From Chiloscyllium plagiosum (lineage: Eukaryota), in NCBI RefSeq assembly GCF_004010195.1, contig NC_057753.1, forward strand, positions 163,439-227,438: a stretch of DNA of 64,000 bases. The letters run 5' to 3'. Under the pieces are notes generated by a model that did no database searches, was not told the DNA's origin, and saw only the letters and a program-made list of their open reading frames with translations. The position numbers were made by a program, and so were the translations under genes. This document shows, piece after piece, positions 3,876 to 50,022 of this stretch (position 1 is the first letter of the stretch; each line of letters starts with the position of its first letter).

Positions 3876-4439
3876 GTGGTGTGAGTGTTGTCAGTCTCTC
3901 CAGTGATAAGTTGAAGCCACACATTCAGGACACGTGTACAAACTCTGCAGCTCGGGGAAGTGCAGTGTGTTTCCAATCTGTGGACCTGTTCAAAGCTCTG
4001 ATGACTTCCAACTGGTTGGACATTGAGCTTTTCCAGTCACAGTGGTCTCTCAGGGATATGGGCCAGGAGCAGCGACCATTTATCACCCCACGGACAGGAA
4101 AAACTGGGAATCCGGGAACTTTGGGGGGGGGGGGGGGGGTGAATGTGGGATGATGAACTCAGTCTGTCTCTGACCGAGTGCTGGTTGAAGCGGAGATAGT
4201 GGCAGAGAGGACTCTGTGGGAGCTGGATTGCAAACGGATTTGATGCAGACACCCAAGGAAGGAGCGTGTGTGTGTGTGTGTGTGTGTGTGTCCCAGAGGG
4301 AGTGCATTGATGCTGGTCCCCCAGTTGCAAACGCCCCCTGGGTCTATCCCGTTGCAAAGTGCTGTCCTTCCAAAGACACAGTCTGCAGCTAAACCCTCTG
4401 CTGGGATTCCAGGGGAAAGAGTTGGAGGGAGGGGGGGGG

Positions 4440-4711
4440 ACTGCGCATGTGCTTGGATGGGCGGCGGTGTCGTCACAAAGGGCTGCGCCCCCCATGCACC
4501 AATAGGAAACCTGGGAGGACCGAAGGGAGCTTGGTCCTCCTGCCAATCAGAGAGCCCCCCCCTCCCTTCATTGTCCGACTGCGGAAGTTGCCCAGTGAGC
4601 TCCTGCTTGCCCCTCTCCCAGCAGAGATGCTGCTGCTGCTGTCTCTCTCTGAATGAAGACTGAGCTTGAGCCCAGACTGCAGCTTCCTTCCTCTCTCCAA
4701 CATCTGTGAGT
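4440..4711 (+). promoter_or_regulatory. Putative promoter, non-coding first exon and splice donor of the ZNF gene
   Basis: NRF1-like TGCGCATGTGC (4442), CCAAT at 4499 and 4543, ETS CGGAAGT at 4582, donor GTGAGT at 4706. Confidence 0.55.
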
Positions 4712-5146
4712 GCAGCACCCTCTCTTTTTCCCCCCACCCACCCCTCCTTTTTATTTTCATTCTGGGGTTCAGCTGTCGGTTTGCAGGAGCTGCAGGGAAA
4801 GGAAATTGGGGGAAAAGGGGGTGTTGAGGACATTGCTTCGTCTGAGACTTCGAGCCTGCTCTCAGGAAGCTTTATCTTCTCGTGAGTTCACGGAGAGGCT
4901 GCCGCAGTCAGCCGATATTTACACCACGATACACACAACAGTGCTTGCTGTGCACTGTAACGTTGAATAGGAAGGAAAGGCGCAGTGGGGCCGCTCCCTT
5001 TGTTGCTCAAGGTCAGAGAGATTAACCAGGATCAGATACACTCCCTATATTTCAGCAAACTATAATTGCACAACCTCAGTCTTTATCTCGAGCAGGATCT
5101 TTCCACTACACCGGCAAGCTTGAGAGCTAGGTCACTTTTGACCTTG

Positions 5147-5872
5147 CTGTGGAGGTGTTGGACTGGGGTGGACAGAGTTAAAAATCACACAACGCAACAG
5201 GTTTATTTGGGAGCACTAGCTTTCGGAGCGCTGCTCCTTCATCGGGCAGCTGCGGAACAGGAGCATAAGGCGCAGAATTTATACCAAAAGATCACAGTGT
5301 CATGCAACTGGTAGGATACATTGAACAAACCTAGATTGCGGTTTAGTCTTTCATCTTTTAGAATGGGTTGCAGGTTTTCGTTCATTAATATGTAAAATTC
5401 CAGACCTACTTTCAATTCACGTTCCCAAGATAGCTTAAAGTCTTATTTAACAAAAAAAGGTGACATTTCATCTCAGACAATGCATTACAGATGTGAGGTT
5501 AGAATCTGTCTGTATGCCAATCTTGAGCTGATAGCCAAGCTCGGTACCCACAAGGATGGCCTCAACCAGGACCTTGGGGTCATGTCACATTACAGGTAAC
5601 CCTGCTACACTATACACTGACACACAGACACGCACACACTCTTACATTCTCACCCAGACCCTTTCTCATACATCACACTCACGCAGACCCTTTCTCATAT
5701 GCACACACTCCCTCAGATGCACACGTACAGCCCCCACACTCAAACCTATGCACAAACCCTCTCAAAGGCTTATACTCTGTCACACTCATGAAGACACTCT
5801 GCCAAGCATGCAAACACACACTGTCATGGATACAATCACTCTCTTTAACCTGGTGTTGTGAGATTTGAACTT
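5147..5872. mobile_element. Penelope-like (Neptune-type) element nested in the ERV 3' LTR, partly inverted
   Basis: 5531-5599 (+) encodes IAKLGTHKDGLNQDLGVMSHYR*, like the C-terminal end of a PLE GIY-YIG domain; degenerate hammerhead on the minus strand at 5213-5247; homologous to 34455-34945. Confidence 0.75.
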
Positions 5873-5912
5873 CTTACCTTGGTCAAGTGTCCCGTCATGC
5901 ATCAGTATGCTG

Positions 5913-6228
5913 ATTAGATTAGATTAGATTAGATTAGATTAGATTACTTACAGTGTGGAAACAGACCCTTCGGCCCAACAAGTCCACACCACCCCGCTGA
6001 AGCGTAACCCACCCATACCCCTACATTTACCCCTTACCTAACACTACGGGCAATTTAGCATGGCCAATTCACCTGACCCTGCACATCTTTGTGACTGTGG
6101 GAGGAAACCGGAGCACCCAGAGGAAACACACACAGACACGGGGAGAATGTGCTAACTTCAGTCGCCTGAGGCGGGAATTGAACCCGAGTCTCTGGCGCTG
6201 TGAGGCAGCAATGCTTGCCACCGTGCCG
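5913..6228 (-). mobile_element. HE1/V-SINE nested in the ERV 3' LTR
   Basis: (TTAGA)n tail, V-domain, tRNA-like head. Confidence 0.9.
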
Positions 6229-6251
6229 CCCAAATTCTTACACCTTCCACA

Positions 6252-6266
6252 ATTCCCTCCTTGTTG
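6252..6266 (-). other. Polypurine tract of ERV copy 1
   Basis: Minus strand AACAAGGAGGGAAT immediately before the TGTGGAAG start of the 3' LTR. Confidence 0.7.
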
Positions 6267-6361
6267 ATCTTCCGGATCAACACCAGCGCACATCCTTCTG
6301 GAACATGGCGCATATTCGGACATGCTTGTTCACCATAGGGGCCGTGATGGGGTACAGTCTG

Positions 6362-7404
6362 GTAGATGATCACCGGTGTTTGGAGCGGATTATGTGATAG
6401 GAACAGACTGCGCACAACAACGGCCTGTAGTTCTCCAGATGATGTGACGTATCAGGCGTGTGACAGTAAAGGTGACGATCCCAGTGACTAAGGAGGAACC
6501 CCAGCTTGACCCCAGCCAGGCGAGGTCAAAGGGCCACCCGTAATCAAAAGGGCAGCTCAATTTCTTGACTTCTGTCCGAATGAGAGTCACCAAATTGGAG
6601 ACATTTTCCGAGTTGTAGGTGCAGCTTTCCCGCCCAACACCAGCACAAGGACCACCCTCTTTTGGAGAATAGAATATCCAAGTGGTTCGGAAGGGCCACT
6701 GTTTGACCTGCCACTCGCTCAGCGTTGACCCCCTGGTCAGGGCCTCCGCGGTGTCATTGGCGACCGTTTCCAATCCTGTTGTGAATTGGCTCCATCCTCG
6801 GGAATGCAGATAGATTCCAATCAGAAGGGAAGGCATCCCAACCCAGGTGAGGAATGCGGTCTTGGGCTTCAGGGGTGAAGGGGACCCATCTGAGACTCTG
6901 ATGTGAGATGCGACATGTCCCATCCCACACGGCCCTCTCCAATCTGAGGGAAGCCAAGGATAGGCCTCAGACCCCAAATAAAACAGCAGGTTAAGTTGGA
7001 AGCTCAGCCCCCTCCGCAACATGGGAGCTGGGTCTCGCTACAGGGAGCCTGACGTCTCATTAAGGACACCGGACCCATTCAATATAACAGTAACTTTGGC
7101 TTGTCAAATTCTGGAGAGGCTCAATCCAGGGGAAAATAAAGGGACATCGCCTCGACCCCACATGAGTGTCAGTAGAGACATTCCCATGTTGTCTGAAGGA
7201 AGTGGTGTTGCTGATGGTGCTGTTAAGGCTTCCAGGGGAAGGGGGCACATGGGATCTGTTACAGTCGGGTTGGTACCCATCTCAGAATGGGGCCAGGCGT
7301 ATACCCTGCTGACGTCCACTCCTGCACGTGCTCAGAGTGATCGGGCTGGCCTGCAGAGTTTCGGTGTGTTAGCCATTCACTTACTTCAGGCCAGCTAAAG
7401 GATA
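6362..7404 (-). pseudogene. Retroviral env remnant (gamma-type TM), frameshifted
   Basis: Heptad TGLETVANDTAEAL, ISD-like ALPNH-LDILFS in an adjacent frame, KEGGPCAGVGRESCTY (degenerate CX6CC), hydrophobic WGSSLVTGIVTFTV. Confidence 0.8.
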
Positions 7405-8037
7405 TATGGGGGGGGGAGGAGTTGTCCCACCTTACCGAAGGAGGGGGCCGTGACCCCGAGCAGCCTCCTGGGCGGCAGCGTTGCTGAGGGACACCTCGTC
7501 CTTCGCGGTTATATGAGCGCCACGTGTGGCCACCGCGACCGGTGAACGGTAAACCGCGGTAGGTCGGCGACGAGACTCACGGGTTGGACGGGTTCACCGG
7601 AGGAGGGGGTAAGCCCACGGTTTCTCCGGGACGTGCCCAAGCCACAGACCGAACCCCCCCCCAGCGGGGGAACGTGACAGGAAATGGTGGAAACCGTTAA
7701 CAGAGTTTCCCCGCGGCGAGGAGGCGCGCACGGGAGTGAGCGGCAAAGCGTTTGGTCAATTGGGCTGGAGTCCCGGGCGGGGAGAGCGCGCACCCCTTGC
7801 GTTTTGATGGGGGGGGGGGGGCGCGACCGCCAGTGAGTGGGACACGGTCAGGTGTGTCAAGGAGGAGGGTTGGGTGGGGGGGTAAATCAGGGCAGGGAGA
7901 GGTCACAGCGTCCAGTGAATGCAGGTGGGGAGGTTCCGAGTCGGAGGAAGGAGGACTAGTCCCAGTCCCCCTTTCAGCTCGGAATGCCCCGCCCGCTATT
8001 CCCTCCCTTGCCGTTGTCAGATCCCATAATCTTCGGG

Positions 8038-8055
8038 ATCCTGCCGACTACGCCA
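8038..8055 (-). other. Primer-binding site, tRNA-Ser
   Basis: Minus strand TGGCGTAGTCGGCAGGAT is complementary to the 3' 18 nt of vertebrate tRNA-Ser(AGA/TGA), ATCCTGCCGACTACGCCA; 5 nt from the LTR CA end. Confidence 0.9.
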
Positions 8056-9114
8056 GGTTCTGTCGAGGACATGACTCAGTCTGAGGCTTTGAGTCTTGCT
8101 TCAAGAAACTTTATGTTTTTGTGAATTCAGCGAGGCTGCCGCAGGCTTTAATCCCAGGGCAGTCCCTCTCCAGCTGAGCAGTCAGCCGATATTTCCAAGG
8201 ATACAAACGCCTTTTGGTTGTTTTATTCAGTTACATTTCCGCACTCGAGTAATGTTGAATACCATTTTTCAAGATAAAGAAAGGCACGGGGGGGGGGGCA
8301 CTCCCTTTGTTCCCGATGTTGCTCACATCCTGAGGGACTGACCAACTTAAGGTACACTCCCTAGATTTCATTGAATGACAATTACGCTACCTCAGGCTTT
8401 ATCTCCAGCAGGATTGTTCTACCGGGCTGAGAGCCAGGTCACCTTTTGCCTCGGTCAAGTATCCCATCATGCAGCAGTGCGCCAAGTTCTTATGACTTCC
8501 ACAGGGGAGCAGACTCTGGAAAGGTCAGTCTTAAAGATATTGCCATCCTTTGATGACACCTTTGTGTCCGGCTGAAAGGATGGTCTCTTTTCGGAAGATC
8601 CCAATTAATGGGTTCGTTTCCCCACCAGTTAATAGGATGGGATAGTGATATCAGTTATCCATTGGTATTATACAACTCTCATGCTGCTGCTGGAGTCTTT
8701 TTTTTTTGTCTTGAACTCATCTGGCTGATGCCAAGAATACCAAATCTGAAAGAGACCAATAAGTGATATAGCGCCAGAAACCTGCAATAGCCTCTAGATT
8801 CGGTGTTGGAACCATTTTCAGTTGTGCTAAACCCTTCCTCTGGTGATACCGTCACCCAATCAGTCCCCACAGCTGGTATTTGTGTTGCGTTTTGGGATAC
8901 GTTTTCTTCAGACTGATCAAACAACGCAAGCAAGAAAGATTGTGGGCTCACATGTCGTTGAATCCTTGAAATCCATACACAGGCTGCTTTTGTTAATCTA
9001 CAGAGTGAAGCAACCTAGGTTACAGGGAAGGGTGGTCTCCTTTCCGACTGAGGCGAGGCGTTATTATCTCAGTGGGTTGTTAGTCCGACGTGAGTCTTCA
9101 TCTGCACATCCCCG

Positions 9115-10038
9115 GGCCCTATGGGAAATGTAGCACGGCCAATCAACCCTTGCCTACACATCTTTGGGCACAATGGGTAATTTCACACAGCCAATCCACC
9201 CTAACGTGCACATCCCTTGCACTATGGGTAATTTAGCATGGCCAATCCACCCTAACGTGCACATCCCTTGCACTATGAGTAATTTAGCATGGCTAATCCA
9301 CCCTAACCTGCACCTCCCTGGGCACTATGGGTAATTTAGCATGGCCAATCCACCCTAACCTGCACATCCCAGGGCACTATGGGTAATTTAGCATGCCCAA
9401 TCCACCTTAATCTACACATCCCTGGATACTATGGGTAACGTAGCACGGCCAATTCACCCTAACCCGCACATCCCTGGGCACTGTGGGTAAGTTAGCAGAG
9501 CCAATCCACCTTAGCTTACACATCCCTGGGCACTGTGTGTAATTTAGCACGGTCAATCCACCATAGCCTTCACATCCCTGGGCACTGTGGTTAACGTAGG
9601 ACGGCAATCCACCCTAACCTGCACATCCTGAAGCACTCTGGGTAATTTAGCATGGCCAATCCACCCTAACCTGCACATCCTTGGACAAGCATGTGGAGGA
9701 CATCCAAGGCTGGAGCTGCTTAAGTAACTACCCAAATAATTTAGCATGGCCAATCCACCCTAACCTTCACATCCTGAAGCACTCTGGGTAATTTAGCATG
9801 GCCAATCCACCCTAACCTTCACATCCTGAAGCACTCTGGGTAATTTAGCATGGCCAATCCACCCTAACCTTCACATCCTGAAGCACTCTGGGTAATTTAG
9901 CATGGCCAATCCACCCTAACCTTCACATCCTGAAGCACTCTGGGTAATTTAGCATGGCCAATCCACCCTAACCTTCACATCCCTGGACAAGCATGTGGAG
10001 GACATCCAAGGCTGGAGCTGCTTAAGTAACTACCCAAA
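9115..10038 (-). repeat. Tandem array (~52-bp unit) derived from the HE1 SINE core
   Basis: Repeated GGGCACTATGGGTAATTTAGCATGGCCAATCCACCCTAACCTGCACATCCCT, roughly 15-16 units. Confidence 0.9.
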
Positions 10039-10334
10039 TTCTGCTTCAAGTTCTTACCCTCGACAGAGTGTGAATCTGTCAGTCAGCGGCAGTTAGACCC
10101 TTCGAGTGGATGCTGAGCGTGTACATTATGTACAGCCGATTGTGGATGGGGGGGGGGAGGGGGGTATGTCAGTTGAGATTGTTGGGACAATAGAATAGAA
10201 ACATGGATTGTGCATCCTGACTGTCCATCCCGGTGACCACGTTTTAAATATATGAATATATTTATGTTTGAAAATGAATAGGAAGGGTTTAGAGGGATAT
10301 GGGCCAAGTGCTGGCAAATGGGACTAGATTAGGT

Positions 10335-10680
10335 TTGGATATCTGGTCAGCATGGTCGAATTGGACCGAAGGGTCTGATTTCCGTGCTGTACATCTCTGT
10401 AACGCGTTAAATACATTATTTCTAAGACAACGTGTGACTTCACACCTCGATCAGATGCCTGTGGAGTTAATCGATGTGTTTGCCGTTCACTATGGGTTTT
10501 GCGATGTACAGATGGTCAGTGGCCGTGGGATGTCTGAACAGTGGTCTGAAAGACGGGCTGATCGCAGGAGGAGGGAGGTGGCCGTCGGAAGATATTGAGG
10601 GGGGGGGTTCGTCGAATCCCTCTGGCTGTCGCAACAGCCCAGGGGTCCAGGCTGTCGGAGCTGGGGGTGGGGCCAGTATA
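10335..10680 (+). repeat. Diverged direct repeat, copy A, upstream of the ZNF exon
   Basis: Aligns by eye with 11925-12270 (shared CCTCGATCAG, GGAGTTAATCGATGTGTTTGC, GAAGATATTGAG). Confidence 0.8.
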
Positions 10681-10953
10681 TCCTTTGCCGTCAAAGCGGG
10701 TCTGTTTCCGTGCTGGACATCTCTCTGACCCTTGGTCTGCTTTTGCAGGGTAACCGGGAGGACTTGCAGACACGGGATCTGAGAGCCCGTTCGGCTCTCC
10801 GGAGCGGATTTCCGAAAGGGGGTGACGCGGCCCCCTTCCGTCGGTTCCGAGAGGCTGGACTGGCAGATGCCGTGCGCGGGGAGAGCTGAGGGGCCGCCCA
10901 ATCGATCGGCAGCAAAGGAGGGTTTCGGCCGGGCCATCCGCTCCCCCCCCCCC

Positions 10954-11796
10954 ATGGAGAAACCCTGGAAGTGCGGGGACTGCGGGAAAGGCTACGGCAC
11001 TCCGTCGGCACTGGAGAGGCACCGACGAGCCCACACGGGCGAGCGGCCGTTCTCCTGCCCCGAGTGCGGCAAGGGCTTCGCGCACGGTTCCGCCGCCCGC
11101 CGGCACCAGCGGGTCCACACGGGCGAGCGGCCGTTCTCCTGCCCCGAGTGCGGGAAGCGGTTCACCCAGTCGTGTAGCCTGAGGACCCACCAGCGGCTGC
11201 ACGCCGGGGAGAGGCCGTTCCCCTGCTCCGAGTGCGGCAAGGCCTTCGCCCACTCCTCGGCCCTGCTGCAGCACCAGCAGCTCCACACCGGCGAGCGGCC
11301 CTTCGGCTGCCCCGAGTGCGGCAAGGCCTTCACCCACTCCTCCGCCCTGCTGAGGCACCAGCAGCTCCACACCGGCGAGAGGCCCTACCTGTGCCCCGAG
11401 TGCGGCCGGGCCTTCAGCCAGTCGGCCGGCCTCCAGTCCCACCGGCGGCTGCACACCGGCGAGAGGCCCTTCGGCTGCCCCGAGTGCGGCCGGGGGTTCG
11501 CCCACTCCTCCGGCCTGCTGACCCACCGGCGGCTGCACACCGGCGAGCGGCCCTTCGCCTGCCCGGCCTGCGGCAGGGCCTTCGCTCAGTCCTGCAGCCT
11601 GCGGAGGCACCAGCGGGTCCACACCGGCGAGCGGCCGTACCCCTGCCCCGAGTGCGGCAAGGCCTTCGCCCACTCCTCCGGCCTGCTGACCCACCAGCGG
11701 GCCCACACCGGCGAGCGGCCCTTCGCCTGCCCCGCGTGCGGGAGGGCCTTCAAGCGGGCCTCCCACCTGCGGAGGCACCAGCGGGTCCACAAGTGA
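10954..11796 (+). CDS. C2H2 zinc-finger protein, 10 tandem fingers (280 aa), no effector domain visible
   Basis: Open frame [13 protein letters not shown]... with ten CxxC-x12-HxxxH units and TGERP linkers; acceptor TTTTGCAG at 10741-10748; alternative in-frame ATG at 10867. Confidence 0.93.
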
Positions 11797-11924
11797 CGGC
11801 TGGCAATCGGGCTCCCGCCGACGTCGCCCGAAAATCCGGAAGGGCTACTTGCTGCCTCTGCTTCCAGTGGGTGGGCGCTCTCCCAATCCAGAACTGCACC
11901 TTGCCTCCTCCCCTCTTCCCTTCA

Positions 11925-12270
11925 GGATATCTGGTTGGCATGAATGAGTTGGACCGAAGGGTCTGTTTCTGTGTTGTGCTTTTCTATAAAGAGTTAAATA
12001 TGTTAGTTCTAAGAAAACATGACTTCATACCTCGATCAGGTGCCGATGGAGTTAATCGATGTGTTTGCAATTCTGGGGGTTTTACAGTGTCCAGATGGAC
12101 AGTGGCCATGGGAAATATTAGAGGAGTTCAGAAGAATCGGGTTTCTGGACTGAAAGGCGGGCTCTTTGCAGGAGGAGAGAGGTTGCCATTCGAAGATATT
12201 GAGAGGGTTTGTAGCATTCACCTGGCTATCGGAGTAGTCAAGGGATCCAGGCTCTCGGAAGCTGGAGAAA
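11925..12270 (+). repeat. Diverged direct repeat, copy B, downstream of the ZNF exon
   Basis: Homologous to 10335-10680. Confidence 0.8.
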
Positions 12271-18365: not shown

Positions 18366-19430
18366 AAGTTTGTGAGATTTGCTCGTTGTTGTGGTTCTGT
18401 TTGCCGAGCTGGGAATTTGTGTTGCAGACGTTTCGCCCCTGTCTAGGTGACATCCTCAGTGCTCGGGAGCCTCCTGTGAAGCCTTCATTTTCACCATGCT
18501 AAATTACCCATAGTGCCCAGGGGCATGTAGGTTAGGGTGGATTGGCCATGCTAAATTACCCATAGTGCCCAGGGGCATGTAGGTTAGGGTGGATTGGCCA
18601 TGCTAAATTACCAATAGTACCCAGGGGCATGTAGGTTAGGGTGGATTGGCCATGCTAAATTACCAATAGTGCCCAGGCGGACTTGTAAATGGTATTAGAA
18701 AACCCAGATCCCTCTGTTCCTCCAAACTGCCAAGAATCCTGTCTTTAATCCTATATTCAGCATTTGAGTTCGACCTTCCAAAATGCATCACTTCGCATTT
18801 ACCCAGCTTGGACACCATTGGCCATTTCTCAGCCCAAAGTTTGTGAGAAGATTTGCTCGTTGTTGTGGTTCTGTTTGCCGAGCTGGGAATTTGTGTTGCA
18901 GACGTTTCGCCCCTGGAACATCCTCAGCGCTAGGGAGCCTCCTGTGAAGCCTTCATTTTCACCATGCTAAATTACCAATAGTGCCCAGGGGCATGTAGGT
19001 TAGGGTGGATTGGCCATGCTAAATTACCCATAGTGCCCAGTGATGTGCAGGTTAGGGTGGATTGGCCATGCTAAATTACCCATAGTGCCCAGGGATGTGC
19101 AGGTTAGGGTGGAATCGCCATGCTAAATTACCCATAGTGCCCAGGGATGTGCAGGTTAGGGTGGATTGGCCATTCTAAATTACCCATAGTGCTTAGGGAT
19201 CTGCAGGTTACGATGGATTGACCATGCTAAATTACCTATAGTGTACAGGGATGTGCAGGTTAGGGTGGATTGGCCATGTTAAATTACCCATAGTGCCCAA
19301 GGATGTGCTGGTTAAGGTGGGTTGGCCATTCTAAATTACCCATAGTGCTTAGGGATCTGCAGGTTTTGATGGATTGGCCATGCTAAATTACCCATAGTGC
19401 CCAGGGATGTGCAGGTTAGGGTGGATTGAT
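18208..19430. repeat. ~470-bp tandem duplication (CR1 + Penelope pLTR fragment + SINE-core units) followed by a 52-bp SINE-core array
   Basis: GGACTTGTAAATGGTATTAGAAAACCC starts at both about 18209 and 18679; array unit GGCCATGCTAAATTACCCATAGTGCCCAGGG... Confidence 0.85.
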
Positions 19431-42959: not shown

Positions 42960-44890
42960 TCTCCCTGTGACGTCATTGTTATTGGTGCTCCCGCAGGGAC
43001 ATCACAGAGGGTGAAGGGATACCTCCCCAATGATACAACAGGGGGTGATGGGGATATTCCCTGTCCCTGTCCCTGTGACAGCACCGTGATGGGTGCTCCC
43101 GCAGTGACATTATAGAGGGTGACAGGGAACCTCCCCAATGACATCACAGAGGGTGATGGGGATGCTCCCTGTCCCTGTGACATCGCCGTGATGGGTGCTC
43201 CCGCAGTGACATTATAGAGGGTGACAGGGAACCTCCCCAATGACATCACAGGGGGGTGATGGGGATACTCCCTATCCCTGTGACATCACCGTAATGGGTG
43301 CTCCCGCAGTGACATTATAGAGGGTGACAGGGAACCTCCCCAATGACATCACAGAGGGTGATGTGGATACTCCCTGTCCCTGTGACATCGCCGTGATGGG
43401 CGCCCTTGCAGTGACATTATAGAGGGTGACAGGGAATCTCCCCAATGACATCACAGGGGGTGATGGGGATACTCCCTGTCCCTGTGACAGCACCGTGATG
43501 GGTGCTCCCGCAGTGACATTATAGAGGGTGACAGGGAACCTCCCCAATGACATCACAGGGGGTGATGGGGATACTCCCTGTCCCTGTGACATCACCGTGA
43601 TGGGTGCCCTTGCAGGGACATTATAGAGGGTGACAGGGAACCTCCCCAATGACATCACAGAGGGTGATGGGGATACTCCCTGTCCCTGTGACATCACCGT
43701 GATGGGTGCCCTTGCAGTGACATTATAGAGGGTGACAGGGAACCTCCCCAATGAAATCACAGGGGGTGATGGGGATACTCCCTGTCCCTGTGACATCGCC
43801 GTGATGGGTGCTCCCACAGGGACATTATAGAGAGTGACAGGGAACCTCCCCAATGACATCACAGAGGGTGATGGGGATACTCCCTGTCCCTGTGACATCG
43901 CCGTGATGGGTGCTCCCGCAGTGACATTATAGAGGGTGACAGGGAACCTCCCCAGTGACATCACAGAGGGTGATGGGGATACTCCCTGCTCCCTGTGACA
44001 TCGCCGTGATGGGTGCCCTTGCAGTGACATTATAGAGGGTGACAGGGAACCTCCCCAATGACATCACAGAGGGTGATGGGGATACTCCCTGTCCCTGTGA
44101 CATCACCGTGATGGGTGCCCTTGCAGTGACATTATAGAGGGTGACAGGGAATCCCCCCAATGACATCACAGGGGGTGATGGGGATACTCCCTGTCCCTGT
44201 GACATCACCGTGATGGGTGCTCCCGCAGTGACATTATAGAGGGTGACAGGGAACCTCCCCAATGACATCACAGAGGGTGATGGGGATACTCCCTGTACCT
44301 GTGACATCGCCGTGATGGGTGCTCCCGCAGTGACATTATAGAGGGTGACAGGGAACCTCCCCAATGACATCACAGGGGGTGATGGGGATGCTCCCTGTCC
44401 CTGTGACATCACCGTGATGGGTGCCCTTGCAGTGACATTATAGAGGGTGACAGGGAACCTCCCCAATGACATCACAGAGGGTGATGGGGGTACTCCCTGT
44501 CCCTGTGACATCACCGTGATGGGTGCTCCCGCAGTGACATTATAGAGAGTGTCAGGGAACCTCCCCAATGACATCACAGAGGGTGATGGGGATACTCCCT
44601 GTCCCTGTGACATCACCGTGATGGGTGCTCCCACAGTGACATTATAGAGGGTGACAGGGAACCTCCCCAATGACATCACAGGGGGTGATGGGGATACTCC
44701 CTGCCCCTGTGACATCACCGTGATGCGTGCCCTTGCAGTGACATTATAGAGGGTGACAGGTAACCTCCCCAATGACATCACAGGGGGTGATGGGGATACT
44801 CCCTGCCCCTGTGACATCACCGTGATGCGTGCCCTTGCAGTGACATTATAGAGGGTGACAGGGAACCTCCGCAATGACGTCACAGAGGGT
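42960..44890. repeat. 102-bp satellite, about 18-19 copies
   Basis: GCAGTGACATTATAGAGGG recurs with period 102 (for example 43101 and 43203). Confidence 0.95.
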
Positions 44891-44949
44891 GAGGATGGGT
44901 CCTGTCCGACCTTGCCTGGCGTCACTGATTGTGTCGGGGATACTCCCAG

Positions 44950-46430
44950 TGACATCACAGAAGGTGACGACCCTGATGGTGTCGGGGAAACCTCCCCCCG
45001 TGACTTCCCAGAGGGTGATGTCACTGATGGTGTCGGGGAAACACCCCCCGTGACTTCCCAGAGGGTGACGTCACTGATGGTGTCGGGAAACCTCCCCCGT
45101 GACTTCCCAGAGGGTGACGTCACTGATGGTGTCGGGGAAACAACCCCCTGAGACTTCCCAGAGGGTGACGTCACTGATGGTGTCGGGGAAACACCCCCCG
45201 TGACTTCCCAGAGGGTGACGTCACTGATGGTGTCGGGGGAAACACCCCCCGTGACTTCCCAGAGGGTGACGTCACTGATGGTGTCGGGGAAACACCCCCC
45301 GTGACTTCCCAGAGGGTGACGTCACTGATGGTGTCGGGGGAAACCTCCCCCTGTGACATCCCAGAGGGTGACGTCACTGATGGTGTGGGGGAAACCTCCG
45401 CCCTGTGACTTCCCAGAGGGTGACGTCACTGATGGTGTCGGGGAAACCTCCCCCCGTGACTTCCCAGAGGGTGACGTCACTGATGGTGTCGGGGAAACAC
45501 CCCCCGTGACTTCACAGACGGTGACGTCACTGATGGTGTCGGGGAAACCTCCCCCTGTGACTTCCCAGAGGGTGACGTCACTGATGGTGTCGGGGAAACA
45601 CTCCCCGTGACTTCCCAGAGGGTGACGTCACTGATGGTGTCGGGGAAACCTTCCCCCGTGACTTCACAGAGGGTGACGTCACTGATGGTGTCGGGGAAAC
45701 CTCCCCCCGTGACTTCCCAGAGGGTGACGTCACTGATGGTGTCGGGGAAACCTCCCCCGTGACTTCCCAGAGGGTGACGTCACTGATGGTGTTGGGGAAA
45801 CACCCCCCTGTGACTTCCCAGAGGGTGACGTCACTGATGGTGTTGGGGAAACCTCCCCCCGTGACTTCCCAGAGGGTGACGTCACTGATGGTGTCGGGGA
45901 AACCTCCCCGTGACTTCCCAGAGGGTGACATCACTGATGGTGTTCGGGAAACCTCCCCCGTGACTTCACAGAGGGTGACGTCACTGATGGTGTTGGGGAA
46001 ACCTTCCCCCGTGACTTCCCAGAGGGTGACGTCACTGATGGTGTCGGGGAAACCTTCCCCCGTGACTTCCCAGAGGGTCACGTCACTGATGGTGTCGGGG
46101 AAACCCCCCTGTGACTTCCCAGAGGGTGACGTCACTGATGGTGTTGGGGAAACCTCCCCCTGTGACTTCACAGAGGGTGACATCACTGATGATGTCGGGG
46201 AAACCTTCCCCCGTGACTTCACAGAGGGTGACATCACTGATGATGTCGGGGAAACCTCCCCCGTGACTTCACAGAGGGTGACATCACTGATGATGTCGGG
46301 GAAACCTTCCCCCGTGACTTCCCAGAGGGTGACATCACTGATGATGTCGGGGAAACCTCCCCCTGTGACTTCCCAGAGGGTGACATCACTGATGGTGTCG
46401 GGGAAACCTTCCCCCGTGACTTCCCAGAGG
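44950..46430. repeat. ~51-bp satellite, about 28 copies, most containing GTGACGTCAC
   Basis: Unit GTGACTTCCCAGAGGGTGACGTCACTGATGGTGTCGGGGAAACCTCCCCC. Confidence 0.95.
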
Positions 46431-48900: not shown

Positions 48901-50022
48901 GAGAAAGTGAGGGCTGCAGATGCTGGAGATCAGAGCTGAAAATGTGTTGCTGGAAACGCGCAGCAGGTCAGGCAGCATCCAGGGAGCAGGAGAATCGACG
49001 TTTCAGGCATGAGCCCGAAGAAGGGNNNNNNNNNNNNNNNNNNNNNNNNNNNNNNNNNNNNNNNNNNNNNNNNNNNNNNNNNNNNNNNNNNNNNNNNNNN
49101 NNNNNNNNNNNNNNNNNNNNNNNNNNNNNNNNNNNNNNNNNNNNNNNNNNNNNNNNNNNNNNNNNNNNNNNNNNNNNNNNNNNNNNNNNNNNNNNNNNNN
49201 NNNNNNNNNNNNNNNNNNNNNNNNNNNNNNNNNNNNNNNNNNNNNNNNNNNNNNNNNNNNNNNNNNNNNNNNNNNNNNNNNNNNNNNNNNNNNNNNNNNN
49301 NNNNNNNNNNNNNNNNNNNNNNNNNNNNNNNNNNNNNNNNNNNNNNNNNNNNNNNNNNNNNNNNNNNNNNNNNNNNNNNNNNNNNNNNNNNNNNNNNNNN
49401 NNNNNNNNNNNNNNNNNNNNNNNNNNNNNNNNNNNNNNNNNNNNNNNNNNNNNNNNNNNNNNNNNNNNNNNNNNNNNNNNNNNNNNNNNNNNNNNNNNNN
49501 NNNNNNNNNNNNNNNNNNNNNNNNNNNNNNNNNNNNNNNNNNNNNNNNNNNNNNNNNNNNNNNNNNNNNNNNNNNNNNNNNNNNNNNNNNNNNNNNNNNN
49601 NNNNNNNNNNNNNNNNNNNNNNNNNNNNNNNNNNNNNNNNNNNNNNNNNNNNNNNNNNNNNNNNNNNNNNNNNNNNNNNNNNNNNNNNNNNNNNNNNNNN
49701 NNNNNNNNNNNNNNNNNNNNNNNNNNNNNNNNNNNNNNNNNNNNNNNNNNNNNNNNNNNNNNNNNNNNNNNNNNNNNNNNNNNNNNNNNNNNNNNNNNNN
49801 NNNNNNNNNNNNNNNNNNNNNNNNNNNNNNNNNNNNNNNNNNNNNNNNNNNNNNNNNNNNNNNNNNNNNNNNNNNNNNNNNNNNNNNNNNNNNNNNNNNN
49901 NNNNNNNNNNNNNNNNNNNNNNNNNNNNNNNNNNNNNNNNNNNNNNNNNNNNNNNNNNNNNNNNNNNNNNNNNNNNNNNNNNNNNNNNNNNNNNNNNNNN
50001 NNNNNNNNNNNNNNNNNNNNNN

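Follow-up and report, generated by a model that had tools for sequence, protein, structure and literature searches.

How can two decayed proviruses lying near each other share an almost identical stretch of envelope gene (env) when the long terminal repeats (LTRs) around it have drifted far apart? The question is raised by 64,000 nucleotides of DNA from the shark Chiloscyllium plagiosum (contig NC_057753.1 of assembly GCF_004010195.1, positions 163,439 to 227,438 of the forward strand), here called the window and numbered from its first letter. A first-pass annotation of this DNA had described one endogenous retrovirus (ERV), element 1, lying antisense in an intron of a zinc-finger (ZNF) gene. 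Self-comparison of the window reveals a second provirus remnant that was absent from that annotation, element 2, at about 25546-28820 on the plus strand; it is inverted with respect to element 1 and also pol-less. We propose that gene conversion or templated repair probably replaced the env of element 1 with that of this inverted provirus of the same family, located 19.7 kb away.

Divergence of env and LTRs in two inverted proviruses

The two elements are composed of the following parts.

Element 1
4818..4821: GGGG, left copy of a putative 4-bp target-site duplication (TSD)
4822..6251, minus strand: LTR A, the 3' LTR, in three pieces (6230-6251, 5870-5912 and 4822-5139)
5140..5869, strand not assigned: later insertion of about 730 nt inside LTR A, part of it 78% identical to 34522-34843
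about 5913..6231, minus strand: short interspersed element (SINE) with a (TTAGA)n tail, inserted at about nt 22 of LTR A
6253..6262, minus strand: polypurine tract (PPT) adjoining the 3' LTR
6263..6361, minus strand: env end and 3' untranslated stretch, present in element 1 only
6362..7405, minus strand: broken, 5'-truncated gamma-type env (later part of the surface subunit, SU, and transmembrane subunit, TM), 98% identical to 27110-28150
7406..8037, minus strand: leader, GC 65%, CpG observed/expected ratio (o/e) 0.83, with a short C-rich microhomology at its junction with env
8038..8055, minus strand: primer-binding site (PBS), 18/18 complementary to the 3' end of tRNA-Ser(AGA/TGA)
8061..8503, minus strand: LTR B, the 5' LTR, 443 nt, with AATAAA at 8227
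8504..8507: GGGG, right copy of the putative TSD

Element 2
25546..25790, plus strand: LTR C, remnant of the 5' LTR, cut by insertions of SINEs and long interspersed elements (LINEs)
26981..27109, plus strand: N-terminal SU part of env, missing from element 1; its frame continues across the tract border
27110..28150, plus strand: second env copy, with 4 frameshifts and 1 stop common with element 1 and its own frameshift near 27929
28151..28449, minus strand: SINE in place of the env end, PPT and LTR start
28454..28820, plus strand: LTR D, the 3' LTR

The two env copies differ by 19 substitutions in 1035 aligned columns (Kimura two-parameter distance, K2P, 0.019; 20 differences in 1067 in a slightly longer alignment), which are evenly spread (Kolmogorov-Smirnov p=0.71), and by 3 internal indels; private indels and derived changes are found on both sides. 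All five breaks, four frameshifts and one stop, are common to both copies at matching positions, indicating that env was already broken before the copies last had a common ancestor.

Conversely, the LTRs are far more diverged. With gap-adjacent columns dropped, A and B are 77% identical (K2P 0.28) and C and D 85% (0.17), while cross pairs range from 71 to 75% (0.30-0.38); without this cleaning, K2P rises to 0.37 for A-B and 0.22 for C-D. The excess of mismatches over env is evident both for C-D (Fisher p=1e-19) and for the best LTR block, tallied by hand (9 mismatches in 80; p=7e-5). Expressed as a clock, the last common ancestor of the env copies dates to about 1% of change per lineage ago, 9-15 times more recent than the divergence of the LTR pairs. 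Informative sites favour the pairing of A with B and of C with D, by 14/2/3 over 160 columns and by 8/0/2 over the best 122. Absolute dating was tried and rejected, the rate of 2.2e-10 assumed in PMC4422223 placing the A-B split at about 640 Myr.

The borders of the common tract are equally informative. It covers exactly 7405-6362 in element 1 and 27110-28150 in element 2, ending at the leader junction of the former and at the SINE of the latter. Beyond the tract, element 1 retains its own env end, PPT and LTR start, and the tract is thus in register. No other copy in the window is more than 92% identical to the SINE at 28151-28449, which is for this reason likely older than the env split. Gene conversion is recognised by just such an arrangement, near-identical sequence bounded by heterology and set within older flanks.

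Some further observations concern the insertions and the remaining part of element 2. Several other copies of the SINE at 5913-6231, which we take to be HE1-like, are present in the window at 70-88% identity. In both 3' LTRs the SINE junction (5913-6231 and 28151-28449) lies near the same point, LTR nt ~22-26, the two SINEs having opposite orientation relative to the provirus; this point is a possible hot spot for SINE insertion. The region 26090-26980, between a LINE fragment and the recognisable env, is AT-rich and then GC-rich, has no Pfam match and has no copy elsewhere in the window.

Origin of the shared tract

Retrotransposition yields identical LTRs for each copy, and is therefore a poor explanation of a young env found twice inside old LTRs; an in-register tract, bounded by heterology and shared by inverted neighbours, argues instead for conversion or templated repair. 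The proposed sequence of events would start from two separate old integrations, both of which later lost gag-pol; in element 1 the leader would have been joined to mid-env at the short C-rich microhomology. Fold-back pairing of the inverted copies, in which env was already broken, would then have homogenised 1.04 kb up to the heterology borders. Element 2 is probably the donor, because its N-terminal env part runs in frame across the border and its decay fits the younger LTR age; indeed, the probability of finding at most one stop is 0.13 at the age of element 2 and 0.02 at that of element 1. Element 1 would have no protein function, and its PBS would have survived by chance in the CpG-rich leader.

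The same data can be read with the env as recently mobile cargo: a broken env carried by a non-autonomous family, whose young cDNA recombined into older LTRs or swapped ends with them. This would jointly explain the intact PBS, the CpG-rich leader and the low number of breaks. However, retrotransposition makes identical LTRs and both pairs are diverged, LTR A contains two old-looking insertions, the leader of element 1 is missing from element 2, and the presence of two copies within 20 kb points to a local process; this reading is unlikely. It is also quite unlikely that the env clock is the right one, both proviruses being young siblings whose LTRs were partly converted by other LTR subfamilies. 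Such a history agrees with the clustering of the LTR mismatches and with the greater similarity of A to C than to B in the core, and LTR dating also failed for ERV-V2 (PMC2567338); it requires, however, several independent conversions, the best LTR blocks are still about 10-16% diverged, and the LTRs contain at least three later insertions, for which the window offers no near-identical copy.

An artefact of assembly, in which reads from the env of element 2 filled element 1, appears the least probable of the explanations considered. The window contains 7 N gaps, suggesting a gapped and probably short-read assembly, and the copies are only 20 kb apart; but such an error is difficult to reconcile with the 19 substitutions, the 3 internal indels, the derived changes present in each copy, the border microhomology of only ~7 nt and the inverted orientation. 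A staggered-break inversion was also considered as the source of the duplicate and rejected, since it would pair A with C and B with D, whereas the informative sites favour A+B, and it would also set the ZNF exons on opposite strands.

Several points weigh against conversion itself. It is deduced from one haplotype, and element 2 has no PBS and no testable TSD. Mismatches between the LTRs fall in clusters (window-variance p=0.009 for A-B), and A resembles C (0.80) more than B (0.72) in the core that aligns best; the age given by the LTR clock may therefore be too high. The number of breaks detected is lower than expected, the probability of at most four frameshifts being 0.047 even at the age of element 2, although detection gives a lower bound. 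Conversion between copies that diverged long ago is disfavoured. Finally, conversion tracts longer than 1 kb are rare in mammals (PMC3961182), so several rounds would be needed.

The closest parallel is offered by the human and simian ERV-V1 and ERV-V2 (ENVV1/ENVV2), which are likewise neighbouring proviruses with old LTRs and a homogenised env: the env paralogues are at a distance of 0.024, LTR divergence is 0.27-0.37, and gene conversion accounts for a tract of about 1.2-1.5 kb (PMC2567338). According to the same source, the ERV-V copies arose in tandem and their env is intact, under selection and expressed in placenta, whereas the shark copies are inverted, apparently derive from separate integrations and carry a dead env.

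Envelope, leader and primer-binding site of element 1

Element 1 is a dead, ordinary, pol-less provirus remnant, class I-like and with a gamma-type env. On the minus strand, between the GGGG flanks, it shows two direct LTR copies with TG...CA ends, a PBS next to the 5' LTR and a PPT next to the 3' LTR; the AATAAA stretch of LTR B is absent from LTR A. The interior extends over 6252-8060 (1809 nt). The first-pass annotation had been accurate on this layout, on the flanks, on an interior of about 1.8 kb and on an antisense, class I-like provirus without pol. A match between the 4-nt flanks has a chance of about 0.004-0.006 given the local composition, with the reservation that the flanks are of low complexity and the left run is G5. 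TSDs of 4 bp are typical of class I ERVs.

Homology of 7405-6362 to TLV_coat (PF00429) extends over the C-terminus of SU and over TM. P0001 is matched with an E value of 6e-19 at 34% identity, a profile match to the family reaches an iE of 4e-28, and the representative library gives 26 matches at 26-37% identity; the family of P0001 (47 matches) consists largely of shark, ray, bony-fish and hagfish envs named "PABLB-like" or "syncytin-like", and its nearest solved structures are syncytin-1 (8ouh) and syncytin-2 (7oix). The broken env frames alone give no direct Pfam match. Frameshifts are located near 7273, 7101, 6727 and 6657, and a stop near 7038; the count of at least four frameshifts and one stop is a lower bound, and the same detection finds no breaks in either of two intact control envs.

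The claim of an env-bearing element thus holds for the gamma-type homology and not for the integrity of the gene, which is 5'-truncated and broken. Since the N-terminus is lost and at least four frameshifts and one stop interrupt the rest, the env of the window cannot encode a working envelope, and the intact open reading frame (ORF) expected of a co-opted, syncytin-like env is not present. The TM motif had been reported as CX6CC; both copies read C-x6-S-C, whereas 24 of 25 aligned relatives have CX6CC, and this variant may reflect decay. The stretch that resembles an immunosuppressive domain (ISD) is recognisable as claimed, with 48-56% identity over 27 aa, but it is bounded by frameshifts, two of which cut it. 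No R-x-K/R-R cleavage site is present in the env of the window. In a quick tree search, which kept 29 of 42 labelled proteins and dropped 13 for a missing anchor motif, the window env forms a long branch without a supported sister; for this reason env does not decide between an epsilon and a gamma affiliation. Moreover, env can be swapped between ERV groups (PMC4724089).

The leader is peculiar in composition, its CpG o/e of 0.83 contrasting with 0.41 for the whole window and ranking it within the 19 most CpG-island-like of 562 windows. It had been regarded as gag-like, a view that finds little in its favour: a PPPY-like word at the junction with env is possibly gag p12-like, while no pol or gag Pfam family matches any of the three minus-strand frames of the leader or of the env stretch, and a homology search with one frame of the three found no match among 7585 candidates. 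Pfam gives no match for 9 natural ORFs of the element 1 interior, and there is no credible match to the integrase-like ORF of a metagenome contig (L001, see below). RNA folding of the leader is no better than that of shuffles (z -1.25). Rfam gives 0 matches and ARAGORN 0 tRNA genes.

The PBS is the only match to the tRNA at up to 4 mismatches in the window and lies 5 nt from the LTR end. It corresponds, at 18/18 as already noticed in the first annotation, to the 3'-terminal 18 nt of human tRNA-Ser-AGA-1-1 and -TGA-2-1 (sequences from PMC10359600), and the tRNA-Ser primer given in PMC3299991 agrees with this match. The PBS may have been retained by selection, as a target of silencing or of tRNA fragments that tunes the host ZNF gene, the role suggested for it in the first annotation. 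The perfect match, the LTR located 116 nt from the predicted splice donor and the CpG-poor putative promoter (0.28) would be consistent with this idea. However, an intact 18-mer has a probability of 0.04-0.11 under drift at the LTR-derived decay rate, for a feature picked post hoc; the CpG o/e of the leader is the opposite of what long-term germline methylation would leave; the CpG level of the promoter is unremarkable, 19% of 86 GC-matched windows being as low; the PBS is intronic and antisense to the host transcript; and the neighbouring element 2 is devoid of a PBS. Selection on the PBS is therefore very unlikely. Silencing by KRAB-ZFP and TRIM28 is described for sarcopterygians in PMC11603059, where sharks are unmentioned, and the type of PBS is an unstable taxonomic trait (PMC4724089).

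Relatives, host gene and significance

The env of the window belongs to the same TLV_coat family as the proteins annotated in sharks and fishes as "ERV group PABLB member 1 Env-like" or "syncytin-like", among them P0002 of Pristiophorus, P0009 of Scyliorhinus torazame and P0005 of Heterodontus. It shares with them, at 27-37% identity and with E values down to 1e-19, the C-terminal SU block Y-P-W-L-P...W-x-G-x-C, the ISD-like heptad and the cysteine loop of TM; unlike them, it is 5'-truncated and frameshifted, reads CX6SC, has no cleavage site and lies on a long branch. Class I ERVs are numerous in cartilaginous fish, with 2018 clade I reverse transcriptase (RT) loci in 6 genomes (PMC11089739, Table 2), and are also covered by PMC4422223, PMC4977317 and PMC6001957. 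Lineages II and III of CmiERV from the elephant shark, epsilon-related, are likewise class I-like; they are defined on pol, complete and with an LTR divergence of 0.024-0.033 (PMC4422223), and are set beside element 1 by description only.

Element 1 has a putative TSD of 4 bp, as in class I, and the pol on which placement in clade I RT is based is found in neither element. The proposal of an undescribed shark ERV lineage is weak: the family may be unnamed, but its env has many annotated members in sharks and fishes, a lineage is defined on the pol that is absent here, and class I ERVs abound in cartilaginous fish. In the literature searched, no account was found of this ERV family or of env conversion in shark ERVs; the repeat databases Repbase and Dfam and the supplements of PMC6001957 and PMC11089739 lay outside that search, and the family may already be named. 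None of 22 candidate viral contigs holds a related locus. Among metagenomes, 2 of 55 candidates do (L001 and L002), with envs at 26-28% identity, no DNA similarity to the window and no PBS; in contig L001, positions 1-2324 contain the end of an integrase-like ORF and, after it, an env of 533 codons that is intact and belongs to this broad family.

Element 1 would lie antisense in intron 1 of a C2H2 zinc-finger gene, an intron predicted from the following features.

4400..4705, plus strand: putative ZNF promoter and non-coding exon 1, prediction only
10749..11796, plus strand: ZNF exon with acceptor at 10748, ATG at 10954, an intact 280-aa ORF (10954-11796) and 10 C2H2 fingers

The putative promoter has CCAAT boxes at 4499 and 4543 and is followed by a GTGAGT donor at 4706; its o/e is not that of a CpG island. 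The distance of 116 nt from this donor to the LTR end was reproduced as first reported. Splicing from 4705 to 10749 is plausible, as predicted from GT/AG signals; a short upstream ORF starts at 4653 and would stop at 10780 if this splice is used. A search of sequencing runs lists no RNA data set with this sequence; 4 of the 24 runs listed, all from one study, contain more than half of the sampled words, but may include the source sample and carry no weight as evidence. Of the 48 Pfam families for the ZNF exon, the best 25 include no KRAB family, and the exact protein was not found in the protein collection searched. The coding exon (GC 73%, o/e 0.81) and its upstream region form a CpG island at 10300-11800, where an alternative ZNF start is possible. 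Direct repeats of about 73% identity (10337-10730 and 11925-12265) flank the coding exon and are possibly the borders of an old duplication unit.

Other repeats are found in the window. Three arrays of a 52-nt unit (9102-9982, 18494-19428 and 29922-30586) match an internal part of the SINE and constitute a SINE-derived minisatellite, one array lying in the predicted ZNF intron. Two GC-rich tandem arrays, 42984-44892 (102-nt unit, 18.6 copies) and 44920-46430 (51-nt unit, 29.9 copies), have 92-93% matches and long open frames. The largest of the N gaps spans 49026-50022.

The inverted env copies could also be a live repeat pair of 1.04 kb: non-crossover repair would homogenise env, similar templated repair within the chromosome, rather than reverse transcription, would have made element 1 pol-less, and crossover would flip the 19.7 kb, cutting the ZNF coding exon off its promoter as a polymorphic on/off switch. 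We regard this wider scheme as a long shot. A likeness exists with F8 int1h-1/int1h-2, near-identical inverted repeats of about the same length (1041 bp), one copy of which is in intron 1, and whose crossover separates exon 1 from the remaining gene (PMC8776779). According to that source, the F8 repeats differ by one base, are 140 kb apart and have a documented inversion, whereas the window pair is 98% identical and proviral, with no inversion seen.

As a provirus, element 1 is unremarkable: it adds a further decayed class I-like ERV to those of sharks, and its env family is well represented in annotations. The value lies in the internal clock conflict, env and LTR ages lying 9-15-fold apart, which makes the locus a compact case of ectopic DNA exchange between dead proviruses and a caution for dating shark ERVs by either LTRs or env. 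Homogenisation of env would here be a new example of a known process, one that needs no selection, in contrast to the ERV-V case, where it was associated with a useful gene. Should the repeat pair mediate inversion as well, this would be a testable way for ERVs to turn zinc-finger genes off.

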